A stretch of DNA of 32,266 bases from an uncultured Thermoplasmatales archaeon (GCA_964517155.1 CAZFAZ010000079.1:1-32266), one strand, 5' to 3'. Counted from the stretch's first letter, positions 20,889 through 32,266 are shown. The notes: a model not told the origin generated them from the letters alone. Program-made: numbers and translations.

Positions 20889-21824
20889 TTATTTTTTAGT
20901 TATTGAGTTTTTTCGTTTCATGTTTACAAATGCAAGACCAACTATTACAAATATTCCACCTATAACAAAAAATATAGTGATGTCATCCTGAAATAATATG
21001 TAGCTTGCAATTGTGCTAAGAACAGGTATTGCATACAAATATACACTTATTTCTGAGGCTGTCTTCATTTCAAGGGCGATATACCAAATGGCATAAGCGA
21101 TGACTGTTGAAAAGATACCAAGAAAGATTACTGCAGACCACGTTATCATATTCATGCTTGATATTTCATTTATCAATGAGGAGTGATTAAAGATAGACAA
21201 AGGTATGAGAATAACACTTGAGAAAAGTATTGCATATGCGGTAAGCGAAAGGCCATTGTATCTATCAAGTAGTTTTTTTCCTGCAATTGTATAAAATGCA
21301 CCAACAATTGCTGCAATCAATACCGCAAATGCAGCAAATGCTCTTTGTATTTCTAACGCTTCTTCTGGTTTGCCCCATAGGGATATAACTATTACTCCAA
21401 AAAGTGCAAGAATTATTCCTAGAAATTTTAAAATTGTTATTTTTTCTTTTAAAAAAACTGCGGCAAGAACCAATATAAAAACTGGTATAGTTGCAATAAT
21501 AAGGCTTGCTGCGCCTGCAGATAGATATTGTTCGCCATAGTTTAGTCCAAAATGATATATCATCACTCCAAAAAATCCTAGTAAAAATATTGATGGTATA
21601 TCTTTTTTATGTATTTTTGAAAACCATTTTCTCTTTAAAATAATCATCAGTAAAAAAGTAGTACATACTACTAAAAATCTCATTATTGTCAGATTTATAA
21701 ATGAGAGATTTTCAAGAGCTATTATTATGAATGGAAATGCAAGTGCCCAAGATGTTATTGCTAGCATCATCATTAGAAAAAATTGTAGGTTTGATAGTTT
21801 TGGTGTCTTTTTTTCTTTTTGCAT
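20889..21824 (-). CDS. EamA/DMT family transporter
   Basis: About 10 TM helices in a duplicated EamA layout (MRF, FLKE, P motifs). Confidence 0.9.
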   Translation of the reverse strand: MQKEKKTPKLSNLQFFLMMMLAITSWALAFPFIIIALENLSFINLTIMRFLVVCTTFLLMIILKRKWFSKIHKKDIPSIFLLGFFGVMIYHFGLNYGEQYLSAGAASLIIATIPVFILVLAAVFLKEKITILKFLGIILALFGVIVISLWGKPEEALEIQRAFAAFAVLIAAIVGAFYTIAGKKLLDRYNGLSLTAYAILFSSVILIPLSIFNHSSLINEISSMNMITWSAVIFLGIFSTVIAYAIWYIALEMKTASEISVYLYAIPVLSTIASYILFQDDITIFFVIGGIFVIVGLAFVNMKRKNSITKK

Positions 21825-21900
21825 TATAATTCTGGGTGATAATTATTTGTGTATAAAAACAGTTGGAAATATTTTTTAATTAGTAGAAATTGTAAATACT

Positions 21901-21963
21901 TTAATAAGAATTCCATTTTTGTATGAATTCTCTTATTCGCTGTATTCTATGGTCGTCGTTCAT
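21901..21963 (-). CDS. Candidate 20-aa micropeptide MNDDHRIQRIREFIQKWNSY
   Basis: GTGAGGAG SD 9 nt upstream of the ATG in an otherwise AT-rich intergenic region. Confidence 0.4.
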   Translation of the reverse strand: MNDDHRIQRIREFIQKWNSY

Positions 21964-22106
21964 ATTCTAAATCTCCTCACGATATACTTTGTAATTAATA
22001 ATATTTATACTTTTCGTTGATTGTGGATTTTTACGATTTAAAAAATAAAAAAGAAAGAGGTGGAATTCTTAAATACTATATATATAATACACAGGTCGTA
22101 GGAGAT

Positions 22107-23995: not shown

Positions 23996-25363
23996 ATGAC
24001 ACTTATCCAAGGGCTGCTGATTTTTTTTACTATTATTTCTGCTTATTTTATAATAATTTATATTTTGAAGTTAAAAGGATTATTTGAAAAATTCAATTTA
24101 TCAATGTTTGGTCCTTTTTTGATGATACGTACAAAAAAAGGTCGTAATTTGTTAAAAAAAATTGCCAAGAGAGAAAGATTCTGGAAAGCATATGGTACAT
24201 GGGGAATCATAATTTGTGTTTCTTTAATGATAATATTTACATTATTTTTTGTCTATTCTAATTTTTCATTTATTTTGTTTTCAACACCTCAAGAGCGAGC
24301 AGCGCTTCCAGGGCCTGAAATAGCTCTTGTTTATCCTGGGATAAATCCTGCATTACCAATTGAAACTATTGGTTATTTTATTATAGCTTTTATTGTGGCG
24401 GTGGTAGTTCATGAATTTTCACATGGTATTTTAGCAATTGTTGGTAAAATGAAGGTTAAATCATTAGGTTTATTATTTATGATAGTGCCAGTTGGGGCTT
24501 TTTGTGAGCCGGATGAAGAGGAATTAAAAAAAGCAGATCCTGTAAAAAGAATGAGAGTTTTTGCAGCAGGCCCATTATCTAATTTTACCGTGGCTATGGT
24601 TATAATTATTACTTTAACTTGTGTTTTTATGCCGGCCGTATCGCATGTTCAAGGTGTTGATATTTTTTATTCTTTAGATAATTCTCCTGGTGAAGAAATA
24701 GGGTTATCTGCAGGCTGTGTTATAACAAGCATAAATGATACCAGCGTTTCTGATTTATATGTTTTTAGAGAAGTCATGGACGAAACATATCCTAATCAGA
24801 CAATAAATATTACATATTTTAGAAAAGGAGAGTATATAAAAAAAGAAGTTAAATTGACTTCGGTTTATCAATATGATACTTCAAATGAGACATATAAAAA
24901 TATAAGTTTTTTAGGTATTGGATTTAATCCATATATTCATTTTTTTGATTATGTAAAAAATCCATTTTTAAATGATTTTCCATTTAGTTTCTTGGGTTTG
25001 ACTCTATTGCCTTTATCAAGTTATATTCTGGGATATAATCCAATTGCAGAGCCTTATACTCATGCATACCAACTTGAAGGACCACTAAGCGCTATTTCTC
25101 CAGATATTTTTTGGATAATTTTTACCATATTATTTTGGATTTTTTGGTTGAATTTTTTACTTGGATTATTTAACATTCTACCAATGATTCCTCTTGATGG
25201 AGGATATCTCTTTAAAGATGCATTTTCATTATTTTTGAAAAAGATATCTAAAAATATAACTGATGAAAAAACAGAAAAAATATCAAAAAATGTTGCCTTT
25301 GTTGTATCTTTAATTATTTTATTTGCAATAGTGTCACAATTTTTCTTAAAATATATTCCATGA
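23996..25363 (+). CDS. Site-2 protease (M50) with PDZ domain
   Basis: HEFSH, GAFCEPD, AAGP..N and NILPMIPLDG motifs. Confidence 0.93.
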   Translation: MTLIQGLLIFFTIISAYFIIIYILKLKGLFEKFNLSMFGPFLMIRTKKGRNLLKKIAKRERFWKAYGTWGIIICVSLMIIFTLFFVYSNFSFILFSTPQERAALPGPEIALVYPGINPALPIETIGYFIIAFIVAVVVHEFSHGILAIVGKMKVKSLGLLFMIVPVGAFCEPDEEELKKADPVKRMRVFAAGPLSNFTVAMVIIITLTCVFMPAVSHVQGVDIFYSLDNSPGEEIGLSAGCVITSINDTSVSDLYVFREVMDETYPNQTINITYFRKGEYIKKEVKLTSVYQYDTSNETYKNISFLGIGFNPYIHFFDYVKNPFLNDFPFSFLGLTLLPLSSYILGYNPIAEPYTHAYQLEGPLSAISPDIFWIIFTILFWIFWLNFLLGLFNILPMIPLDGGYLFKDAFSLFLKKISKNITDEKTEKISKNVAFVVSLIILFAIVSQFFLKYIP

Positions 25364-25375
25364 TTTGTTATTCTA

Positions 25376-25876
25376 TTAATTGTTAATATTTACTTTACAA
25401 GGTGAGGGTAGTTTCATACCTGCTTTGCGTAAAGATTCTTTTGCTTGAGGGACAAATTGATCATGCGTTTCAATAGTCATTACAATCTGGTCAGCTTGTA
25501 CTTCAGCTGCTGTTCCAACGTTTTTACCGTATGCTGCACGCATTCCTTGACTAACACGATCTGCACCAGCACCAGTTGCTTGTTTGTTTTCACGGAGAAC
25601 CACATGTGGATAAACTCTAACTTGTAGTCTAAAATTTGTAGTTCCAACTTTTTTTTCCATAGCGCGTGTGACAGTTATACGAGCTGCTTCAAGAGCATTA
25701 TGTCTTATATGACATCTCTCAATTGAATGAAGTGCGACTTTTTTTGGAAATTTATCGGTTTTATTTCCTACTACAAACTGTGTTATACGGGAAGCAGGAA
25801 CTCCGCCCAGGTACTCTTTACGTGTTGTAGGCATTCCTCTAACATATCTATACATTGATGAAGGTTTACGTGCCAT
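25376..25876 (-). CDS. rpl10e: 50S ribosomal protein L10e/uL16
   Basis: ALEAARI and YPH.VLRENKQATGAGADRVSQGMR..YGK motifs. Confidence 0.97.
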   Translation of the reverse strand: MARKPSSMYRYVRGMPTTRKEYLGGVPASRITQFVVGNKTDKFPKKVALHSIERCHIRHNALEAARITVTRAMEKKVGTTNFRLQVRVYPHVVLRENKQATGAGADRVSQGMRAAYGKNVGTAAEVQADQIVMTIETHDQFVPQAKESLRKAGMKLPSPCKVNINN

Positions 25877-25949
25877 TTTGCTACACCTATTTTTTTAGTT
25901 GATAAGAAAAGCGAAATAAGGTTAGTATTTATAAATGTAATGGAGTGTT

Positions 25950-25965
25950 CAGTACTTCCGAAAGT
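25950..25965 (+). repeat. Left terminal inverted repeat
   Basis: cagtacttccgaaagt; the CAGTAC start resembles ISH3-family ends. It lies 180 nt beyond the transposase stop. Confidence 0.75.
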
Positions 25966-26144
25966 GGGGACAAAATAAAGGATTTTGTATAAAAAACTAT
26001 CACAAGATCCGTTTTATAGGAGTAAAAATCTGATAGTTATGAGAAAAAACAGTATATTTCTCCTTAAAACTACTAAAAAAGTGGGATAGAAATATGTTTT
26101 AAACTAATTGAAAAGTATGAATAAAAAAACGGAGAACATGATTG

Positions 26145-27707
26145 CTATCCTCCTCCAGGATCTATGGTGTAAAGTACTGTTCCAAAGTATTTTGAAGTAA
26201 TCAAATGATCCTCTTTTACATATCCAAACAATGCAAGCCAAATTAAGATGTCAGCAAGTAACCAAAGGTTATACAATAAAACTGAAAATAGGAAATAGAA
26301 AATTCTAATCTGATAATTTTTAGAAGTAGTTTTAGGTAAGAAAGACTGTTTTTTGACTCTATAACTTGTCTCAATTCCCCAACGTTTACTATACAATAAA
26401 AATAGTCTTTTAGCAAGACTTATGTCATTTTCATCAAATATTTCATTAGTTGCAAATGCCCTTTTCTTTCCTTCTTCATCATTGATGATAACTACGTTAA
26501 AAACACAATTTTCCATCTCATAATCGTTTATAACTGCGGGTGACGGCATAATTTCTAAAAGTCTTTTAATCCTTGAATTTGCAGAACAAGGAATGAGGAA
26601 CTTAAGTCTGAAATTTTTGAAAACATTGATAGAATTTGAATCGAAAAACCCACGATCTGCATATATTCGATTTATCTTTATTCTTTGCTGAGTAAAACTA
26701 AATAGTTTCTTTAGGATCTGTTCTTTACTGTCAAATGGACCAACAGGCAAAGCAAGAAGCGTAAAACGTTTACCTGCCTCAACTATGTTGATTGTTGCAA
26801 ATTTATAACATTTACTGGTTCCTCGTTCTGGTTTTTTACCAACAACCATTGGAGTGCTTCTATCACCATAGTAGAACCATTCTGTATAGTCAATTGCAAC
26901 ATCATATTGTTTGTGAATATCTAATGTGTTTGACTGTTTTATCATAGTCCAAAGGATTTCAAAAAGAGTAAGATACATCTTTTGAATTTCCTTGAGATCA
27001 TTATGATTTTTGATATGATACAAAAGTGTATCTGCATCGGGAGTTTTATTGTCCTTTAGTTCTTTTAGTGTTTTACTACCATTCTCTGCAAAATCACGTG
27101 TCATCCCCATATGTAACATGAGATCAATGAACTGATTTTTCTGATAAACTGTATTATGTCGTAATTTAAAATCAATAAATGGGGAAAATCTTTTCTTAAT
27201 AAGTTGACAGACTTCTCTTGTATTTTTCTTTCTCTGTAGGTCTTGATTTCTTTTCTTCGTAAGTTTCTTAGGTCTTTTAGGTTCCAACGTTTGAATATCA
27301 AATAATATTCCAAATTTTTCAGATACTTCCTCTATCTTTGTAAGTATGAAATCCAATAGTTCTCTTTTTTCATTGTCTAATATGTGATGTAAAAAATAAC
27401 CTGTTGTTCGTCTATCAGGTATTTCTGTTAAACCAAGTAACAATGTTTCTTCTGGATGTAATTTTAGATATTGGTGTAATTGTTTTTGATATTTGATTTT
27501 CTTTAATTTTTGAAAAATCAATAGTCTAAAAAGTGAGTAGTAATCAAATTTAATTTTTCTATAATCCTGATTAGAAATATCTGTAATTTTTAATTTATTT
27601 AGGAATTCTGCTATGCAGATATTCTTTTCTTTTTTGAATTGTTCGAATGTGTTATATATCTCCAATTCTATTTTTTCTTTGGAGATATTTTGTTTGCTTC
27701 GCGGCAT
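26145..27707 (-). CDS. ISH3/IS4-type DDE transposase with N-terminal extension
   Basis: IDYTE.FYYG (D1), ADRGF (D2) and YSKRWGIETSYRVKK (YREK signature, E); FATI.IV..GKRFTL is typical of the ISH3 group. Confidence 0.92.
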   Translation of the reverse strand: MPRSKQNISKEKIELEIYNTFEQFKKEKNICIAEFLNKLKITDISNQDYRKIKFDYYSLFRLLIFQKLKKIKYQKQLHQYLKLHPEETLLLGLTEIPDRRTTGYFLHHILDNEKRELLDFILTKIEEVSEKFGILFDIQTLEPKRPKKLTKKRNQDLQRKKNTREVCQLIKKRFSPFIDFKLRHNTVYQKNQFIDLMLHMGMTRDFAENGSKTLKELKDNKTPDADTLLYHIKNHNDLKEIQKMYLTLFEILWTMIKQSNTLDIHKQYDVAIDYTEWFYYGDRSTPMVVGKKPERGTSKCYKFATINIVEAGKRFTLLALPVGPFDSKEQILKKLFSFTQQRIKINRIYADRGFFDSNSINVFKNFRLKFLIPCSANSRIKRLLEIMPSPAVINDYEMENCVFNVVIINDEEGKKRAFATNEIFDENDISLAKRLFLLYSKRWGIETSYRVKKQSFLPKTTSKNYQIRIFYFLFSVLLYNLWLLADILIWLALFGYVKEDHLITSKYFGTVLYTIDPGGG

Positions 27708-27719
27708 TCATTTTTCTCC

Positions 27720-27751
27720 ATGCCTTAGGGAGTTGCACCTCCCTATGGCAT
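27720..27751 (-). promoter_or_regulatory. GC-rich stem-loop in the transposase 5' leader containing an SD-like GGGAGGTG
   Basis: atgcc-t-tagggag-ttgcac-ctcccta-t-ggcat: 12 complementary pairs with one mismatch, ending 12 nt before the transposase ATG. Confidence 0.7.
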
Positions 27752-27767
27752 CTTATTTAATCGTAAT

Positions 27768-27844
27768 TACACTTTTACACATAAGTGTATAAATTATATG
27801 TTAATAAGTGTTGTGGTTAAGTGTATAAGTGGAAAAGTTTAAAA
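27768..27844. promoter_or_regulatory. Divergent promoter with (T/A)AAGTGTA-like octamer repeats (putative RHH operator)
   Basis: TAAGTGTA at 27782 and 27818, TAAGTGTT at 27805, TAAGTGGA at 27826; inverted copies at 27768 and 27776. TATA-like boxes at 27788-27793 (minus) and 27838-27844 (plus). Confidence 0.65.
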
Positions 27845-27874
27845 CCTTCATAAAATATTCAGTTTTTGATAACT

Positions 27875-28015
27875 ATGGGTAGAATAGATGTAATATTGCC
27901 TGATGATCTCGAAGAACAATTTCGAAAAAAAGTATTTGAAAAATTTGGAATGAAAAGAGGAAATATTACAGCAGCTATCCAAGAAGCAATTGAAAATTGG
28001 ATTGGGAAAAATTAA
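27875..28015 (+). CDS. 46-aa ribbon-helix-helix (CopG/Arc-like) DNA-binding protein (not in ORF track)
   Basis: Manual translation MGRIDVILPDDLEEQFRKKVFEKFGMKRGNITAAIQEAIENWIGKN*: alternating beta strand, LPDDL helix cap, G turn and second helix I.EAI..W. BRE/TATA about 30 nt upstream. Confidence 0.85.
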   Translation: MGRIDVILPDDLEEQFRKKVFEKFGMKRGNITAAIQEAIENWIGKN

Positions 28016-28323
28016 CTACTAAAATTTAATGCAATTGACAAAAGCATAGACCCAATAGCAACTATTACTGTTAATAGAAAATACATGGATGCTTTTTTAC
28101 TATCTTCCTTTATCTGTTTTGATATATCAGTGATTTCATTTTGCGCTTCTTTAGTTTTTTGTAAAGTTTTTGCAATATCCTCGGAAAGATATCCTCTAAA
28201 AACATTTTCTTCAAATTGTTTATAGTCCTTTTCTTTAAATCCTAAATCTATCCACTTTCTTCTTTTTATCATCATCTTTTGTTCTGCAGTTAGGTAAGGT
28301 ATAACTTTGTTTTCTTTTTTCAT
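28012..28323 (-). CDS. Hypothetical protein with coiled coil and C-terminal TM anchor
   Basis: GGAGTGAG SD before the ATG at 28323; hydrophobic C-terminal helix. Confidence 0.7.
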   Translation of the reverse strand: MKKENKVIPYLTAEQKMMIKRRKWIDLGFKEKDYKQFEENVFRGYLSEDIAKTLQKTKEAQNEITDISKQIKEDSKKASMYFLLTVIVAIGSMLLSIALNFSS

Positions 28324-28398
28324 ATTTCTCACTCCAAATTAAATATCAAATAAAATCCATTAATACTTTAAAGCTTGGGAGCCTAATTTATATTTATA

Positions 28399-28977
28399 TC
28401 AATCATCCCATTCAAAATAGTCTCCCCAATATCCCATATCAAACAGTATATCACATATACCGTTTTCAAAACCAAATTGAATGGGCCACATATCCCCAGT
28501 ATAGCTATTTGAACCCGTTATCGCATTATCAGCACTTAAAAAAGAACTCCATGCTTTATTATAATCTTTTGATAAAAGATATTCTAAACCATCTATTGCA
28601 GAATCTCGACAATCCTCATATTCATATGCGAACAACTTACCTGAATCACTATAATAAGTATTTTCACCTAATTCTTCGATGATATCATCGTTATCTAAAA
28701 TTATTTTTTTATGTTTTTCAAATTCAGTTTGATTATAGTTTAATATATAGTCTATTTCGTTTTGTGAAGTATCAAAATTATATGAACCAGATTCATCTAC
28801 AAAAAAACCCGCGACTCTATCCATAGCGTTTTCAAACTTTTCATGTAATGAATCATAATCGGGCTTTGATTCAGTATCATTATTATTCTGGTCGGTTTTT
28901 TCTGTCGTACATCCACTAATAATTCCAATCCCAATAACCATTATGGAAATCATACAAAATAATATCTCTTTTTTCAT
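28399..28977 (-). CDS. Acidic putative lipoprotein
   Basis: Signal peptide ending in lipobox-like ISGC followed by a polar linker. Confidence 0.75.
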   Translation of the reverse strand: MKKEILFCMISIMVIGIGIISGCTTEKTDQNNNDTESKPDYDSLHEKFENAMDRVAGFFVDESGSYNFDTSQNEIDYILNYNQTEFEKHKKIILDNDDIIEELGENTYYSDSGKLFAYEYEDCRDSAIDGLEYLLSKDYNKAWSSFLSADNAITGSNSYTGDMWPIQFGFENGICDILFDMGYWGDYFEWDD

Positions 28978-28980
28978 TTT

Positions 28981-29361
28981 CTAATCCTCAAACCAAGAAG
29001 TATCTCCAACATCAACGATTTTTATAGCCTTAATATAAACAATTTCTCTTATTATGCCGCTTCCATCACATCGATAACAATTGCCATAGCAATCTTCAAA
29101 ATAGCCATCCTTTATCAGAATTTTTCCATAAATCGGATCATCATAGTATGTTGCTTCAACCCATCTGCGGCATTTTCCAGAGCCATCACAGCTAGGACAT
29201 ACGTCTGTTTTTCCTGTGTAATTATAATATCCATATTCATTTACACCATCATATTTGAACTCTTCAACATCAGAAGATTTGTTATTTGTTTCGATACATC
29301 CACTAGATACAAGAATTAGTGTTATTACAATTACGCTTACTATAAATGCTTTGCATTTCAT
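28981..29361 (-). CDS. Putative lipoprotein with DnaJ-type zinc-finger motifs
   Basis: MKCKAF... signal with SSGC lipobox; CPSCDGSG and CYRCDGSG motifs. GAGAGG SD before the ATG at 29361. Confidence 0.75.
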   Translation of the reverse strand: MKCKAFIVSVIVITLILVSSGCIETNNKSSDVEEFKYDGVNEYGYYNYTGKTDVCPSCDGSGKCRRWVEATYYDDPIYGKILIKDGYFEDCYGNCYRCDGSGIIREIVYIKAIKIVDVGDTSWFED

Positions 29362-29372
29362 ATTTTTGCCTC

Positions 29373-29651
29373 TCAATTTTTGCTGCCACAATAAGGACAT
29401 AATTCCGCATCAAAAGGAATAGAACGACCACATTCGTTACAATATATTTTACTTTTTGGTTTAATGTTTGTTTTTTCTTGTCGTATAGTTATTGTTTGTT
29501 GCTCAGATGAAAAAGCACCGATAATAAGAAGAATGAAACCAAGTAAAGCTATAGGCCCTCCAAGAATAACTCCGAAACCGCCGGTAATGGCTGTAAAAAA
29601 AAGACCAAACAGCAATAATATAAAGCCTGTTATTGTAAGACCTTCTCTCAT
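29373..29651 (-). CDS. Two-TM membrane protein with C-terminal zinc ribbon
   Basis: CNECGRSIPFDAELCPYCG; GAGG SD. Confidence 0.85.
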   Translation of the reverse strand: MREGLTITGFILLLFGLFFTAITGGFGVILGGPIALLGFILLIIGAFSSEQQTITIRQEKTNIKPKSKIYCNECGRSIPFDAELCPYCGSKN

Positions 29652-29671
29652 TTTATCCTCTTTATTTCAAA

Positions 29672-29887
29672 TCATTTAAAATTTTTACCACAGTATGGAC
29701 ATAACTTTGCATCAAAAGGAATAGCACGATTGCAGGCAGGGCATTTTCTATCAGGTTCTTCAGAAATAGACTTTGGAGTATCTTTCTCTATAAAAATTGT
29801 TTTTTTACCTGTTGCTGCCATTGCGATTAAAATAATAATGACTATAACTAACAATATTGCTATTAAACAAAGCATTTTTTCCCTCAT
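29672..29887 (-). CDS. Single-TM membrane protein with C-terminal zinc ribbon
   Basis: CPACNRAIPFDAKLCPYCG; ATGA overlap with the upstream SHOCT gene. Confidence 0.85.
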   Translation of the reverse strand: MREKMLCLIAILLVIVIIILIAMAATGKKTIFIEKDTPKSISEEPDRKCPACNRAIPFDAKLCPYCGKNFK

Positions 29888-30354
29888 TTTTCTTTTATTA
29901 TATCTTCTTTCATTTGTTCATAATCTGTCTTTGTGATTTCTCCTTTGGCATACCTTTTAGTAAGTATCTCGATAGCGTCTTCCTCTTGATGGGTCTCTAC
30001 TTTTGGTTTGGTTACATCTTGTTTTTGACTCTTATATTTTGCAAGAAATCCAAAAAACATAATTGCTACACCTATAAGAATAACAAAAGGAAGTCCATTA
30101 TATACACCTCTAGCGCTCTCTATATTTTCCTCTGCTTCTATACCCATATCATAGTACATATCCCATGCGGATTCCCAGTCATCAAGATATTTAATCGAAG
30201 CTTTCCTCATTTCAGCAGATTCTACTATTATATCTTCTTGTTCTGGAATATATACGTTATTAATATAAAACATTCCTCCAATACCGCCGATAATAATAAA
30301 AAAACCAATAACTATAATCCATATCCAGCTTTCTATCTTATTATTCTCCATCAT
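29884..30354 (-). CDS. Two-TM membrane protein with C-terminal SHOCT domain
   Basis: DAIEILTKRYAKGEITKTDYEQMKEDI matches the SHOCT pattern. Confidence 0.85.
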   Translation of the reverse strand: MMENNKIESWIWIIVIGFFIIIGGIGGMFYINNVYIPEQEDIIVESAEMRKASIKYLDDWESAWDMYYDMGIEAEENIESARGVYNGLPFVILIGVAIMFFGFLAKYKSQKQDVTKPKVETHQEEDAIEILTKRYAKGEITKTDYEQMKEDIIKEK

Positions 30355-30383
30355 TTTTACTCCAATTCTCTATTTTAAAACAA

Positions 30384-31343
30384 TTAGTCGTTTATAAACT
30401 TAATTTTTTTCCATCCTTTCGTTATTTCTAAATAATCGCCATTATAGGCTAATTTAGATAGAATGGATCTTACAACTAATGATCTTAGGTTTTTCATACA
30501 TTTTACTAAAGATTCAGATTCAATTTTTTCTGCTTTATGAAAAATCTTGTTTCTTACATTTAAAATCATTTTAATATCATAATCATAGTCTTTTAAACCA
30601 ATGTTGTTATTCTCCATAAATTCAATAATTCTGTCGCTAATAGGTCTTCTTTTTAATTCAGATATTTTCTTAAAAAGTTCTTTTTTTCTATCCTCCGATA
30701 GTTTATCAAAGGAAGAATGATTTGTTAATACATTTTTTATTTCTGAAGTCAAGCCGTTTGGTAGCCCATCATTTCCATAAATAAATTCCTCAGTATTATA
30801 CAGAACTAATGACTCTAAACTAATATATGGAAAAATAAAGCAATTTGTAAGCATATTATCTTCAATTCCTGCCAAATAAAAAGCAATAGGAAATAATAAA
30901 TTATTTATTCTTAAAAAATCAGGTTCAGTTATTTTCTTCTCTATTTGCTTTAATAATTTTAATATATTTTCTTCATCCATAATTCTTTCTTTTGGAAATT
31001 TTGCTGATTTTGTACCAAAGAAATTACCCGTATGTAAACCAGGAACTTTTGGTGAGATATTATGACCAGTACGTGAAATACGAATTCCTTGTGCAAATGA
31101 TAATATCCAATTTATTTGATCGATTTCATTTTCTTTAAGTGTAATTTTTTTCTTTAATTCATCTGTGTCTTCTCCTTGAATCTCAGATATAGCATTAAAT
31201 GTAATATAGTCTTTTTTTTCATTATTCATCTTTTTAATAACTTCATCATATTTTTCAACTTTATAAAAATTAAAAGTGCCTATTTGAAAATCATTTTGTA
31301 TTTCAAGATTCTTTACAGAAAAGTTAATTTTCGTAGTTATCAT
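30384..31343 (-). CDS. HEPN-domain protein (ApeA/MAE_28990-like architecture), putative RNase
   Basis: LLSFAQG-like segment (ILSFAQG), ISLESL glutamate and C-terminal RNKIFH (R-x4-H) motif. Confidence 0.7.
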   Translation of the reverse strand: MITTKINFSVKNLEIQNDFQIGTFNFYKVEKYDEVIKKMNNEKKDYITFNAISEIQGEDTDELKKKITLKENEIDQINWILSFAQGIRISRTGHNISPKVPGLHTGNFFGTKSAKFPKERIMDEENILKLLKQIEKKITEPDFLRINNLLFPIAFYLAGIEDNMLTNCFIFPYISLESLVLYNTEEFIYGNDGLPNGLTSEIKNVLTNHSSFDKLSEDRKKELFKKISELKRRPISDRIIEFMENNNIGLKDYDYDIKMILNVRNKIFHKAEKIESESLVKCMKNLRSLVVRSILSKLAYNGDYLEITKGWKKIKFIND

Positions 31344-31433
31344 ATTTTGAAAATAAGTTCCATCTGTTTAATGTTTATGCCAATGAAGTAGATTTTAATT
31401 ATATTTTTATAGTAATTGTAGACATAGTAATTG

Positions 31434-32114
31434 ATGAGAGCAGATCTGATTAAAGAAATCCGTAAGGCGATTAGGAATGGAAAACCAAAAATTCAGGTTT
31501 CTTATGAGTTTGGTTTATCATATAAAAAAGTGTTAAGACTAACCAGCGATATTAAAACGAAAAGGGGTATTTCCCAGGTTCTTAGAAAGAAAATTCGTAA
31601 TGAAGTTAAAAATGGTAGATCTAAGAGACAAACTGCTCTTTATTTTGGTGTTTCAGAAAATACTGTATGTTATCATACAAAAGATATTTGTTTACGTCCT
31701 TTTAAAAACCTGCGAGTTCATGATAAAAAGTTAGAACTTATGAAAGATCTTTTGAGAGATGGTTATGCATTGCCTTCTAAGAAATATCATACACCTGAAT
31801 ATAACGAGCTGAAACGACATTTCCCATCTATTTGTAAAGTTAAGATGTATGATCGTGTTATCTTTTATCTTGAGGATAAAAAGGATGCTGCAACACGTGC
31901 TTTTCTTGATAATTCAAAACGTAAAATTATTAGTTATCAAGAGTTGAAACGAGTAACGAAAACTTTTGACTCTAATCTAAATATTAAGGAGAAAAGACAG
32001 ATTATCAAAGATAACCGTTCTAAAAAGTTATTCAAGAAGGAAAAAGACGGTGATTATTCTTTGGCATTTTTTTACATTCGGAGGTACTTTGATAACAAAA
32101 ACATTTATATATAG
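31434..32114 (+). CDS. Basic protein with two tandem N-terminal HTH-like repeats; C-terminus reads through the right TIR
   Basis: Repeats LIKEIRKAIRNGKPKIQVSYEFGLSYKKVLRLTSDI and LRKKIRNEVKNGRSKRQTALYFGVSENTVCYHTKDI. The YIRRY codons are the TIR sequence. Confidence 0.8.
   Translation: MRADLIKEIRKAIRNGKPKIQVSYEFGLSYKKVLRLTSDIKTKRGISQVLRKKIRNEVKNGRSKRQTALYFGVSENTVCYHTKDICLRPFKNLRVHDKKLELMKDLLRDGYALPSKKYHTPEYNELKRHFPSICKVKMYDRVIFYLEDKKDAATRAFLDNSKRKIISYQELKRVTKTFDSNLNIKEKRQIIKDNRSKKLFKKEKDGDYSLAFFYIRRYFDNKNIYI
32074..32089 (-). repeat. Right terminal inverted repeat (imperfect)
   Basis: acattcggaggtactt; reverse complement aagtacctccgaatgt versus left cagtacttccgaaagt. Confidence 0.65.
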
Positions 32115-32266
32115 TATGTATAATGCTTTGTTCCTCTGTCTACACCAGACATTTATCTGGGCAATACAAAAAAAATTTTTTGTAACCCGGGATCAAACAG
32201 TTAAAAAAATAATGGGTTTGGTTTTTGAGCTGTTTGTTAAATGTCACGGTATAGAGTTAGAAGAGA

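Follow-up and report, generated by a model that had tools for sequence, protein, structure and literature searches.

The window analysed here (32,266 nucleotides, nt) is the whole of contig C79 in the 1.59-Mb, 91-contig genome of an uncultured Thermoplasmatales archaeon (GCA_964517155.1; CAZFAZ010000079.1:1-32266). At 25950-32089 it carries a segment of 6140 bp, measured between the outer edges of two inverted repeats that match at 13/16 positions, with ten open reading frames (ORFs) inside, one of which is a transposase gene. The left terminal inverted repeat (IRL, CAGTACTTCCGAAAGT; 25950-25965, plus strand) marks the transposase end and the right terminal inverted repeat (IRR, AAGTACCTCCGAATGT read inward; 32074-32089, minus strand) the other, both being recognised from the sequence and from their match to a family motif. 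Inward of IRL follow a non-coding stretch (25966-26144), a DDE transposase of 520 amino acids (aa) that belongs to an ISH3-like clade on Pfam, NCBIfam and motif evidence and points towards IRL (26145-27707, minus strand), a leader region on the same strand (27716-27751), a divergent 46-aa gene resembling ribbon-helix-helix (RHH) genes, with homologues in the same place elsewhere (27875-28015, plus strand), seven co-oriented minus-strand ORFs (28012-31343) and a 227-aa gene with multiple helix-turn-helix (HTH) units (31431-32114, plus strand), which faces outward and whose frame crosses IRR to stop 22 nt past the element. The original prediction for this DNA had described the repeats, the outward-facing transposase, the divergent RHH gene, the seven passengers and the outward HTH gene, and each of them was located as described. 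Our analysis suggests that 25950-32089 is one copy of an ISH3-derived unit-transposon family with conserved end modules and interchangeable cargo, a reading to which we assign a probability of roughly 0.87.

The pairing of the two repeats is unremarkable in itself, since the region holds 1465 inverted pairs and this one falls outside the 25 longest. The family consensus CAGTASYTCCGAAWGT, at one mismatch or fewer, has exactly two matches in the 32-kb window, which are IRL and IRR, against 0.02 expected from 100 shuffles. In 58 aligned loci the repeat at the transposase end is 16-17 nt long with the consensus CAGTAGTTCCGAAAGTa and lies approximately 195-210 nt past the transposase stop; the length of the intervening non-coding stretch is kept across these loci and its sequence only poorly. 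IRL is of the CAGT type, with CAGT at its tip, and the tip of IRR is AAGT in the C79 copy, while the IRR consensus in other copies is CAGTACYTCCGAATGY and the family consensus has CAGT at both ends. The mismatched tip base had been taken as a sign of decay, which it is not, as shown by a second copy (L013) that has AAGTA at both ends together with a perfect target duplication.

The transposase matches Pfam DDE_Tnp_1 at 29.1 bits and its best NCBIfam match is ISH3 (NF033541; 165.9 bits, E 1.1e-48), over residues 219-484 only. Residues D273, D351 and E446 and the arrangement Y439-x2-R442-x3-E446 are at least 97% conserved in 116 homologues, and residues 439-450 (YSKRWGIETSYR) fit the ISH3 pattern Y-(2)-R-(3)-E-(3)-(R), including R450, which takes the place of the YREK motif of IS4 according to the portion of De Palmenaer et al. 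(2008; PMC2266710) available to us. Further ISH3 rules in the same portion are ends of the form CRGT, duplication of 4-5 bp of target (in most cases 5) and a single ORF within a total length of 1225-1500 bp. CRGT ends are found at the C79 IRL (CAGT) and in the family consensus; the duplication is missing from the C79 copy and present in 15 closed copies and one mini element; and the size and single-ORF rule is broken both here (6140 bp, ten ORFs) and in the family as a whole (2.9-22.6 kb). As a control, eight loci with ISH3-type ORFs of 318-399 aa from the same class were inspected, and six of them are elements of 1347-1406 bp with 16-bp inverted repeats (CAGTAGTTCGGCAAGT or CAGTACTTCGGAAAGT), two with a 5/5 duplication. 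The large transposase corresponds to the classical ISH3 catalytic core with an extra N-terminal region of approximately 170-200 aa. On the evidence of the motif, the ends, the duplication and the classical ISH3 controls, the large elements are therefore a derived ISH3 branch. The original prediction of an ISH3-like transposase is thus upheld by the motif, the CAGT ends, the 5-bp duplication and the best NCBIfam match, while its wording of a new class was too strong: what is new is a variant of the ISH3 lineage, and of the known unit transposons, or insertion sequences (ISs) with passenger genes.

Transposase-anchored loci of relatives (73 fetched, three duplicates dropped, 70 distinct; numbered L below, with G for genomes and C for contigs) were oriented and then searched for the repeat motif, for the HTH gene (hidden Markov model, six seeds) and for flank identity. 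Fifteen transposase-bearing copies of between 2936 and 22649 bp could be closed, every one of them bounded by a 5/5 target duplication: L025 (2936 bp, AAACC), L013 (4059 bp, AAGTT), L021 (6443 bp, AAAAG), L039 (7030 bp, ACTAA), the second element of G057:C55 (7766 bp, CCTCT), contig C59 of the source genome itself (8585 bp, AATAT), L019 (9409 bp, AATAC), L067 (9955 bp, CTACA), L068 (9995 bp, CCTTA), L066 (10386 bp, CAGCA), L072 (11003 bp, TCTCC), L076 (13059 bp, TTCAT), G103:C75 (17940 bp, CTTTG), G031:C3 (21059 bp, CTTAA) and G031:C4 (22649 bp, TTTAA). Insertion seems not to be site-specific, given that the duplications vary from copy to copy. Upstream matches to the motif with four mismatches served as an internal control and mostly show flank agreement of 0-3/5, the exceptions with 4/5 or 5/5 being L020 (at 2631), L053 (at 301) and L080 (at 3473). 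The contig edge falls inside the element in most loci, and among the 25 with approximately 10 kb or more upstream, 11 were closed with a duplication. In one case (L084, 4339 bp) contig and element coincide, with a repeat at either end, and an 1800-bp derivative lacking the transposase (L087, 4597-6396, in G103:C75), which consists of repeat, split HTH gene, KaiC-like gene and repeat and shares CTTTG with the abutting G103 element, looks like a non-autonomous member of the family. The expectation that other copies would show duplications of 4-5 bp was thus borne out, and whole units bracketed by perfect 5-bp duplications agree with the proposal of a unit transposon, as opposed to a simple IS or a two-IS composite.

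Copies of the element also stand head to tail. Eight distinct junctions of a left end with a right end occur in the fetched DNA (L025:~1098, L037:7938, L064:7619, L068:6715, L076:~3645, L087:6384, L094:2414 and L095:764), seven of them with a 5-bp spacer equal to the target duplication, and CTTTG is found three times in G103:C75. The neighbours in such arrays differ (89% identity or less over 300 nt), which argues that the arrays are real and are not artefacts of circles, and the junctions suggest that insertion has happened more than once directly beside a copy already present.

Relatives of the transposase are numerous, with hundreds of full-length sequences in metagenomes, the named ones belonging to Thermoplasmatota or Thermoplasmatales. 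In 197 species genomes of the source's class, 81 match it at E 1e-30 or better and 63 at E 1e-100 or better, the latter threshold serving as a marker of the 520-aa type, and when 401 genomes were sampled evenly across the phylum, the 32 matches at E 1e-100 or better all fell in three families of this same class. The family has so far been found only in one class of Thermoplasmatota, and a scan of IMG/VR with the transposase alignment revealed no relative. A full-length transposase of 60% identity lies on a contig binned into an Ignavibacteriaceae metagenome-assembled genome (L017), perhaps through mis-binning or transfer, and no HTH gene or right repeat occurs within 10 kb of it. Transposase ends with no HTH gene or IRR within 20-35 kb upstream were seen in G055:C1 (at 1.40 Mb and 1.88 Mb), G054:C1 (1.90 Mb), G051:C7 and G043:C102; these genomes carry HTH genes elsewhere, and the ends may be rearranged, orphaned or part of elements longer than 35 kb.

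An all-versus-all comparison of the 164 ORFs in 18 delimited elements identified only two shared families, the transposase (17/17 transposase-bearing elements) and the HTH protein (16/18), situated at opposite ends. The remaining cargo is unrelated between copies, apart from surface proteins of PKD type, which recur, and reaches about 19 kb per element. It includes two UbiA prenyltransferases with an FAD oxidoreductase and KaiC; a PAS sensor with a histidine kinase and a response regulator; a CDC48-N protein with a protein of metallo-beta-lactamase fold; a Mokosh-like helicase-nuclease; a PDC-S28 helicase with a protein resembling spore photoproduct lyase; a type IIG restriction-methylase with ParB-ASCH; giant proteins combining C25 and M28 peptidases with PKD; a set of ArsR, ArsP, low-molecular-weight phosphatase (LMWP), NikR, FecCD and DsbD genes with a nested IS; and a complete HmaA/B/C defence system with a caspase-RNase HII fusion. 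One genome (G031) harbours two elements of 21-22.6 kb with different cargo (C3: L030, 1338-14697; C4: L029/L085), of which one carries the complete Hma system and the caspase-RNase HII fusion and the other the arsenic, nickel and iron-transport set with the nested IS. The variable cargo bay of the original prediction is therefore supported by passenger genes that differ between copies, and its proposed core of transposase, RHH and HTH genes is right for the first and the last of these and wrong for the RHH gene.

The HTH homologues stand at the same end in the other copies of the source genome (62% and 31% identity) as well as in the 16 delimited elements, and in 13 of these 16 no stop interrupts the frame before the outer edge of the repeat, so that the stop codon usually comes from the flanking DNA. 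An AlphaFold2 model of the protein (mean predicted local distance difference test score, pLDDT, 81.9) contains two three-helix HTH units, a helix/beta-hairpin domain resembling a winged helix and C-terminal helices. Foldseek comparison of this model with the PDB yielded nothing at E 0.001 or better, and VIA-align returned IstA (Z 6.6) and HTH units of Tc3, Hin, Tn3 resolvase, TnsB and Cbp1 (Z 5.2-6.4), all of which lie within the noise stated for the tool and serve as leads only. The NCBIfam model HTH_Cbp1 reaches 20.9 bits, where its cut-off is 140, homologues are named in their sources as hypothetical or 'CsgD family transcriptional regulator', and BLASTP found no meaningful similarity between the HTH protein and the transposase. 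Predictions of a complex between the two (0.42, 0.00 and 0.00 in separate runs) are uninformative either way. The large transposase and the HTH gene occur together in 53 of the 197 genomes of the class, the transposase only in 10, the HTH gene only in 26 and neither in 108, related genomes in this count not being independent and assemblies being incomplete.

Between the transposase gene and the cargo lies a position that we refer to as the regulator slot: 56 of 66 loci have a small divergent ORF there, at a distance of 90-190 bp from the transposase on its upstream side. Its occupants are Zn-ribbon (26), RHH-like (15, including C79), AbrB/MazE-like (8), winged HTH (4) and HxlR (3) proteins, and in L076 the slot holds an ArsR gene. 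The slot is thus a case of non-homologous replacement at a fixed position by at least five unrelated DNA-binding families, and the RHH gene, which the original prediction treated as a fixed part of the core and which we also considered as a conserved core gene, was rejected in that role, matching only itself in its own genome and occurring in 15 of 66 loci. The RHH assignment is itself weak in Pfam, where homologues match 56B_RHH at E 0.0017 and RHH_6 at E 0.006. On the other side of the intergenic region, the transposase leader in C79 forms a stem-loop (27720-27751, minus strand; minimum free energy, MFE, -20.2 kcal/mol, z -7.0) beside a GGAG Shine-Dalgarno-like motif (27716-27719), a feature supported by fold energy and covariation. 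A hairpin is found in 53 of 61 distinct leaders (median MFE -16.4 kcal/mol, median z -3.9), ending within 4 nt of a GGAG/GGAA motif that lies 8-10 nt before the transposase start. Compensatory changes occur at all seven predicted consensus pairs, and the arms change in step between copies (GGGAG/CTCCC, GAGAA/TTCTC, AGAGG/CCTCT). The hairpin could serve either as a leader structure in RNA or as an operator with palindromic sequence. An Rfam scan of 25300-32266 gave no match at E 0.1 or better, and a promoter and terminator scan, which is ill-suited to archaea, returned counts at the level of shuffled sequence.

The cargo of the C79 copy consists, from left to right and all on the minus strand, of ORFs encoding 106 aa with a C-terminus that is hydrophobic by eye and no Pfam family above the cut-off (28012-28332), 192 aa with an N-terminus that by eye is lipoprotein-like (28399-28977), 139 aa with a signal-like N-terminus and CxxC motifs (28981-29400; DnaJ_CXXCXGXG below the cut-off), 92 aa with a membrane segment (by eye) and a zinc ribbon (29373-29651; Pfam Zn_ribbon_3, 27.4 bits), 71 aa with a membrane segment (by eye) and a zinc ribbon (29672-29887; UPF0547, 29.9 bits), 156 aa with a membrane segment (by eye) and a SHOCT domain (29884-30354; SHOCT, 31.6 bits) and 319 aa (30384-31343). 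PADLOC found no matches among the cargo ORFs of the window, and the 319-aa protein also has no Pfam or NCBIfam match; in L012 a 76% identical homologue holds the corresponding position, adjoining the HTH gene. For this protein the leads from Atlas, at 0.91-0.92, are MauJ and ApeA/HEPN clusters, and a RNKIFH stretch (Rx4H), picked out by eye, fits the Rx4-6H pattern of HEPN proteins. It is possible, as a lead only, that the protein is HEPN-like.

Further copies reside in the source genome. The element in C59 (10404-18988, 8585 bp) has inverted repeats matching at 15/16 positions and the duplication AATAT, with a transposase 72% and an HTH protein 31% identical to those of C79 and the two genes at opposite ends. 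A second, running from C50:6109 to the contig end, encodes a transposase and an HTH protein each 62% identical to those of C79, and the IRL end that it lacks lies on C71, beside an AATCT flank that matches. Neither the RHH-like gene nor any of the seven passengers of the C79 copy occurs a second time in the genome. Additional element ends were observed at C55:43305, C70:195, C71:99 and C52:16719, several of them within 200 bp of a contig edge, and contig C76 contains a remnant (21752-22085) made up of a decayed left end and a 44-codon transposase fragment. With these further ends at contig edges and the C76 remnant, the genome is taken to hold more copies than the three that were assembled.

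From the arrangement of the family, the transposase would cut and join both repeats, the small gene in the slot would repress or tune transposase expression, and the HTH protein may be an accessory factor encoded by the element, binding its ends or acting in regulation. Recombination between conserved end modules, together with the fusion of neighbours arranged head to tail, may be the way in which elements grow and exchange cargo. A bolder proposal sees here a two-ended kind of transposition system, novel for the IS4/ISH3 superfamily, in which the enlarged transposase would require the multi-HTH protein as a subunit for end recognition or assembly, the arrays would stem from insertion directed to sequence flanking a copy already in place, and neighbour fusion would have built the 20-kb carriers of defence and resistance genes; we regard this as tentative and on balance doubtful.

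Several observations weigh against the interpretation of 25950-32089 as one copy of an ISH3-derived unit-transposon family. The transposase scores under the NF033541 equivalog cut-off of 225 bits, and every functional role proposed within the family has been read from sequence. Among the 25 loci with sufficient upstream DNA, five have an HTH gene but no recognisable IRR and nine have neither an HTH gene nor an IRR within 10-35 kb, and a search for second ends by duplication and loose motif closed nothing in nine loci with 10-35 kb upstream. We consider it very improbable that the locus is a simple IS whose second repeat arose by chance among unrelated neighbouring genes, or a composite of two IS copies: a 13/16 inverted pair is common in AT-rich DNA, but there is a single transposase gene and no internal repeat at one mismatch or fewer, the motif occurs twice where almost no match is expected, and there are the 15 closed homologous units with perfect duplications. 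No locus examined has an inverted repeat directly upstream of the transposase, an arrangement that the original prediction had itself named as contrary to it; the nearest real one is 1.18 kb off, in L025, and the HTH gene and right repeat do co-occur with the transposase in the copies compared. The HTH gene is, however, absent from two short elements, L025 and L020 (the latter with a 4/5 duplication), and in a more distant clade (L076 and L080, transposase 48-50% identical) it is internal and not terminal. It could thus be argued that this gene has no part in transposition and is a passenger or a general transcription factor, the transposase alone recognising both repeats as in classical ISH3. 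The classical ISH3 transposases of 354-399 aa in the same genomes, which use very similar repeats with no HTH gene, are consistent with such a bystander, as are the two short elements, the 26 genomes with an HTH gene and no large transposase, the CsgD-type names of some homologues and the weak fold matches (Z at most 6.6, with nothing from Foldseek at its threshold). On the other hand, it is the sole gene besides the transposase that is common to elements of otherwise unrelated cargo, its place and orientation are constant with the frame running into the repeat in 13/16 elements, L025 retains the last HTH codons fused to IRR and is thus a deletion derivative, and the 1.8-kb derivative without a transposase retains the gene, though split. 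We therefore think a bystander role unlikely, without dismissing it.

The C79 copy itself raises a separate difficulty, because it has no target duplication (left flank GTGTT, right flank TGATA, 1/5 agreement), and its flanks are adjacent in 0/4 relatives that have both, lying 94 kb and approximately 1.2 Mb apart in the two of these that are assembled as single contigs. Depth in Logan is approximately 85 over rpl10e, the left repeat and the 3' end of the transposase gene (25300-26583) and 34-42 over 26700-32266, with an interior contig break at 26583-26713, within the transposase gene. A chimeric join is possible given the depth of 85 at the left junction against 34-40 in the interior and the break inside that gene. 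In addition, TGATA is also the flank of the decayed IRL remnant at C76:21752, after which the transposase C-terminal fragment follows, and more element ends of the same genome lie at contig edges (C55, C70, C71). Against this, Logan contigs of two runs (X1 and X2) bridge each C79 junction without mismatches, although these runs are perhaps the genome's own source sample and so do not lend the junctions independent support; the transposase and HTH ORFs are intact; TGATA is one of several candidate pairings and could be shared by chance; and the left flank of C76 shows no similarity to the C3 region that resembles the right flank of C79, leaving a pairing through paralogy unsupported. The C79 copy is probably either a hybrid that combines two insertions or a chimera of the assembly with its join in the transposase gene. 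The fuller account, in which the copy did not come from one insertion and either two insertions recombined in their homologous modules or the assembler joined two copies within the transposase gene, with the ends stemming from different events, we hold to be evenly balanced. A hybrid or chimera fits the missing duplication better than age does, with the core ORFs intact and the flanks far apart in relatives; of the older or degenerating insertion that had been proposed, the lack of a duplication is confirmed and the decay is not. The uneven depth also hints at two sub-populations with a common left junction, and a Logan joint of 27698 to 32069 was set aside, its short side being only 20 letters long and probably belonging to another copy.

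The rpl10e gene (25376-25876, minus strand; Ribosomal_L16, E 6.6e-30) lies 74 bp left of the element, and similarity to the DNA of element-free relatives ends 4-15 bp before IRL and restarts 7 bp after IRR. The original prediction looked for an empty site beside rpl10e, and a genome of the same genus does carry this gene with no element beside it; of the three observations that the prediction had named as refuting it, none was made.

The ISH3-derived unit-transposon family can be compared with several known systems. The defining features of a unit transposon are all present in the family, and the C79 copy has all of them but the duplication; those of a composite are not, there being one transposase gene and no second, internal repeat. 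It shares with ISH3 ISs the Y-x2-R-x3-E-x3-R DDE transposase, CAGT ends, the 5-bp duplication and an archaeal host, and its repeat (CAGTAGTTCCGAAAGT) is near that of classical copies in the same genomes (CAGTAGTTCGGCAAGT). It differs from the single-ORF classical elements, for which a range of 1225-1500 bp is given in the part of the ISH3 description cited above, in its size of 2.9-22.6 kb, its 520-aa transposase with 170-200 additional N-terminal aa, the multi-HTH gene at the far end, the regulator slot and the cargo in the middle. The Tn3 family combines terminal repeats and a 5-bp duplication with a small DNA-binding gene by the transposase gene and varied cargo, including defence and metal resistance. 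Our family resembles Tn3 unit transposons in all these respects, but no transposase of approximately 1000 aa of the Tn3 kind and no resolvase are among the Pfam matches of the ten ORFs, the repeats are 16-17 bp and not 38 bp, and the transposition genes are split between two ends. ISs with passenger genes are known from ISfinder as 'transporter IS'. In the IS231 subgroup of IS4 (1450-5400 bp), a single transposase is likewise accompanied by extra genes between one repeat and the transposase gene, and the available portion of De Palmenaer et al. (2008; PMC2266710) notes these passenger genes and describes the modular aspect as unseen in other IS families. IS231 differs in transposase family and host domain, and cargo of up to approximately 19 kb and a conserved second end module are absent from it. 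Archaeal elements of the Tn7 family (bioRxiv 10.1101/2025.07.27.667033, as far as the accessible text describes them) and casposons are likewise cargo-bearing archaeal DNA transposons, but their machinery is unrelated, with no TnsA/B/C, TniQ or Cas1 here.

A DDE unit transposon with cargo is therefore known as a kind, and what appear to be new are the ISH3-derived lineage, the split end modules and the regulator slot. Full-text literature searches, with ISfinder, TnCentral and article supplements outside their scope, turned up no account of ISH3-type elements that carry passenger genes. According to the accessible part of a survey from 2019 of elements integrated in archaeal genomes (PMC6563490), passenger-carrying transposons had not been detected in archaea; archaeal Tn7-like elements have been reported since, in a 2025 preprint available in part (bioRxiv 10.1101/2025.07.27.667033), and the accessible part of a 2026 survey of archaeal ISs handles ISH3 only as a simple IS (PMC13343696). 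The family would add an abundant cargo carrier of the DDE type to archaea, found in 63 of the 197 genomes compared in one class. Its single units, which reach 22.6 kb, carry systems for defence, gene sets for metal resistance, genes for signalling and large surface proteins, and the split transposition module, the regulator slot with its unrelated replacements and the conserved leader hairpin are features open to experimental testing. The family would thus be a concrete vehicle for gene flow within the genomes of uncultured sediment archaea.

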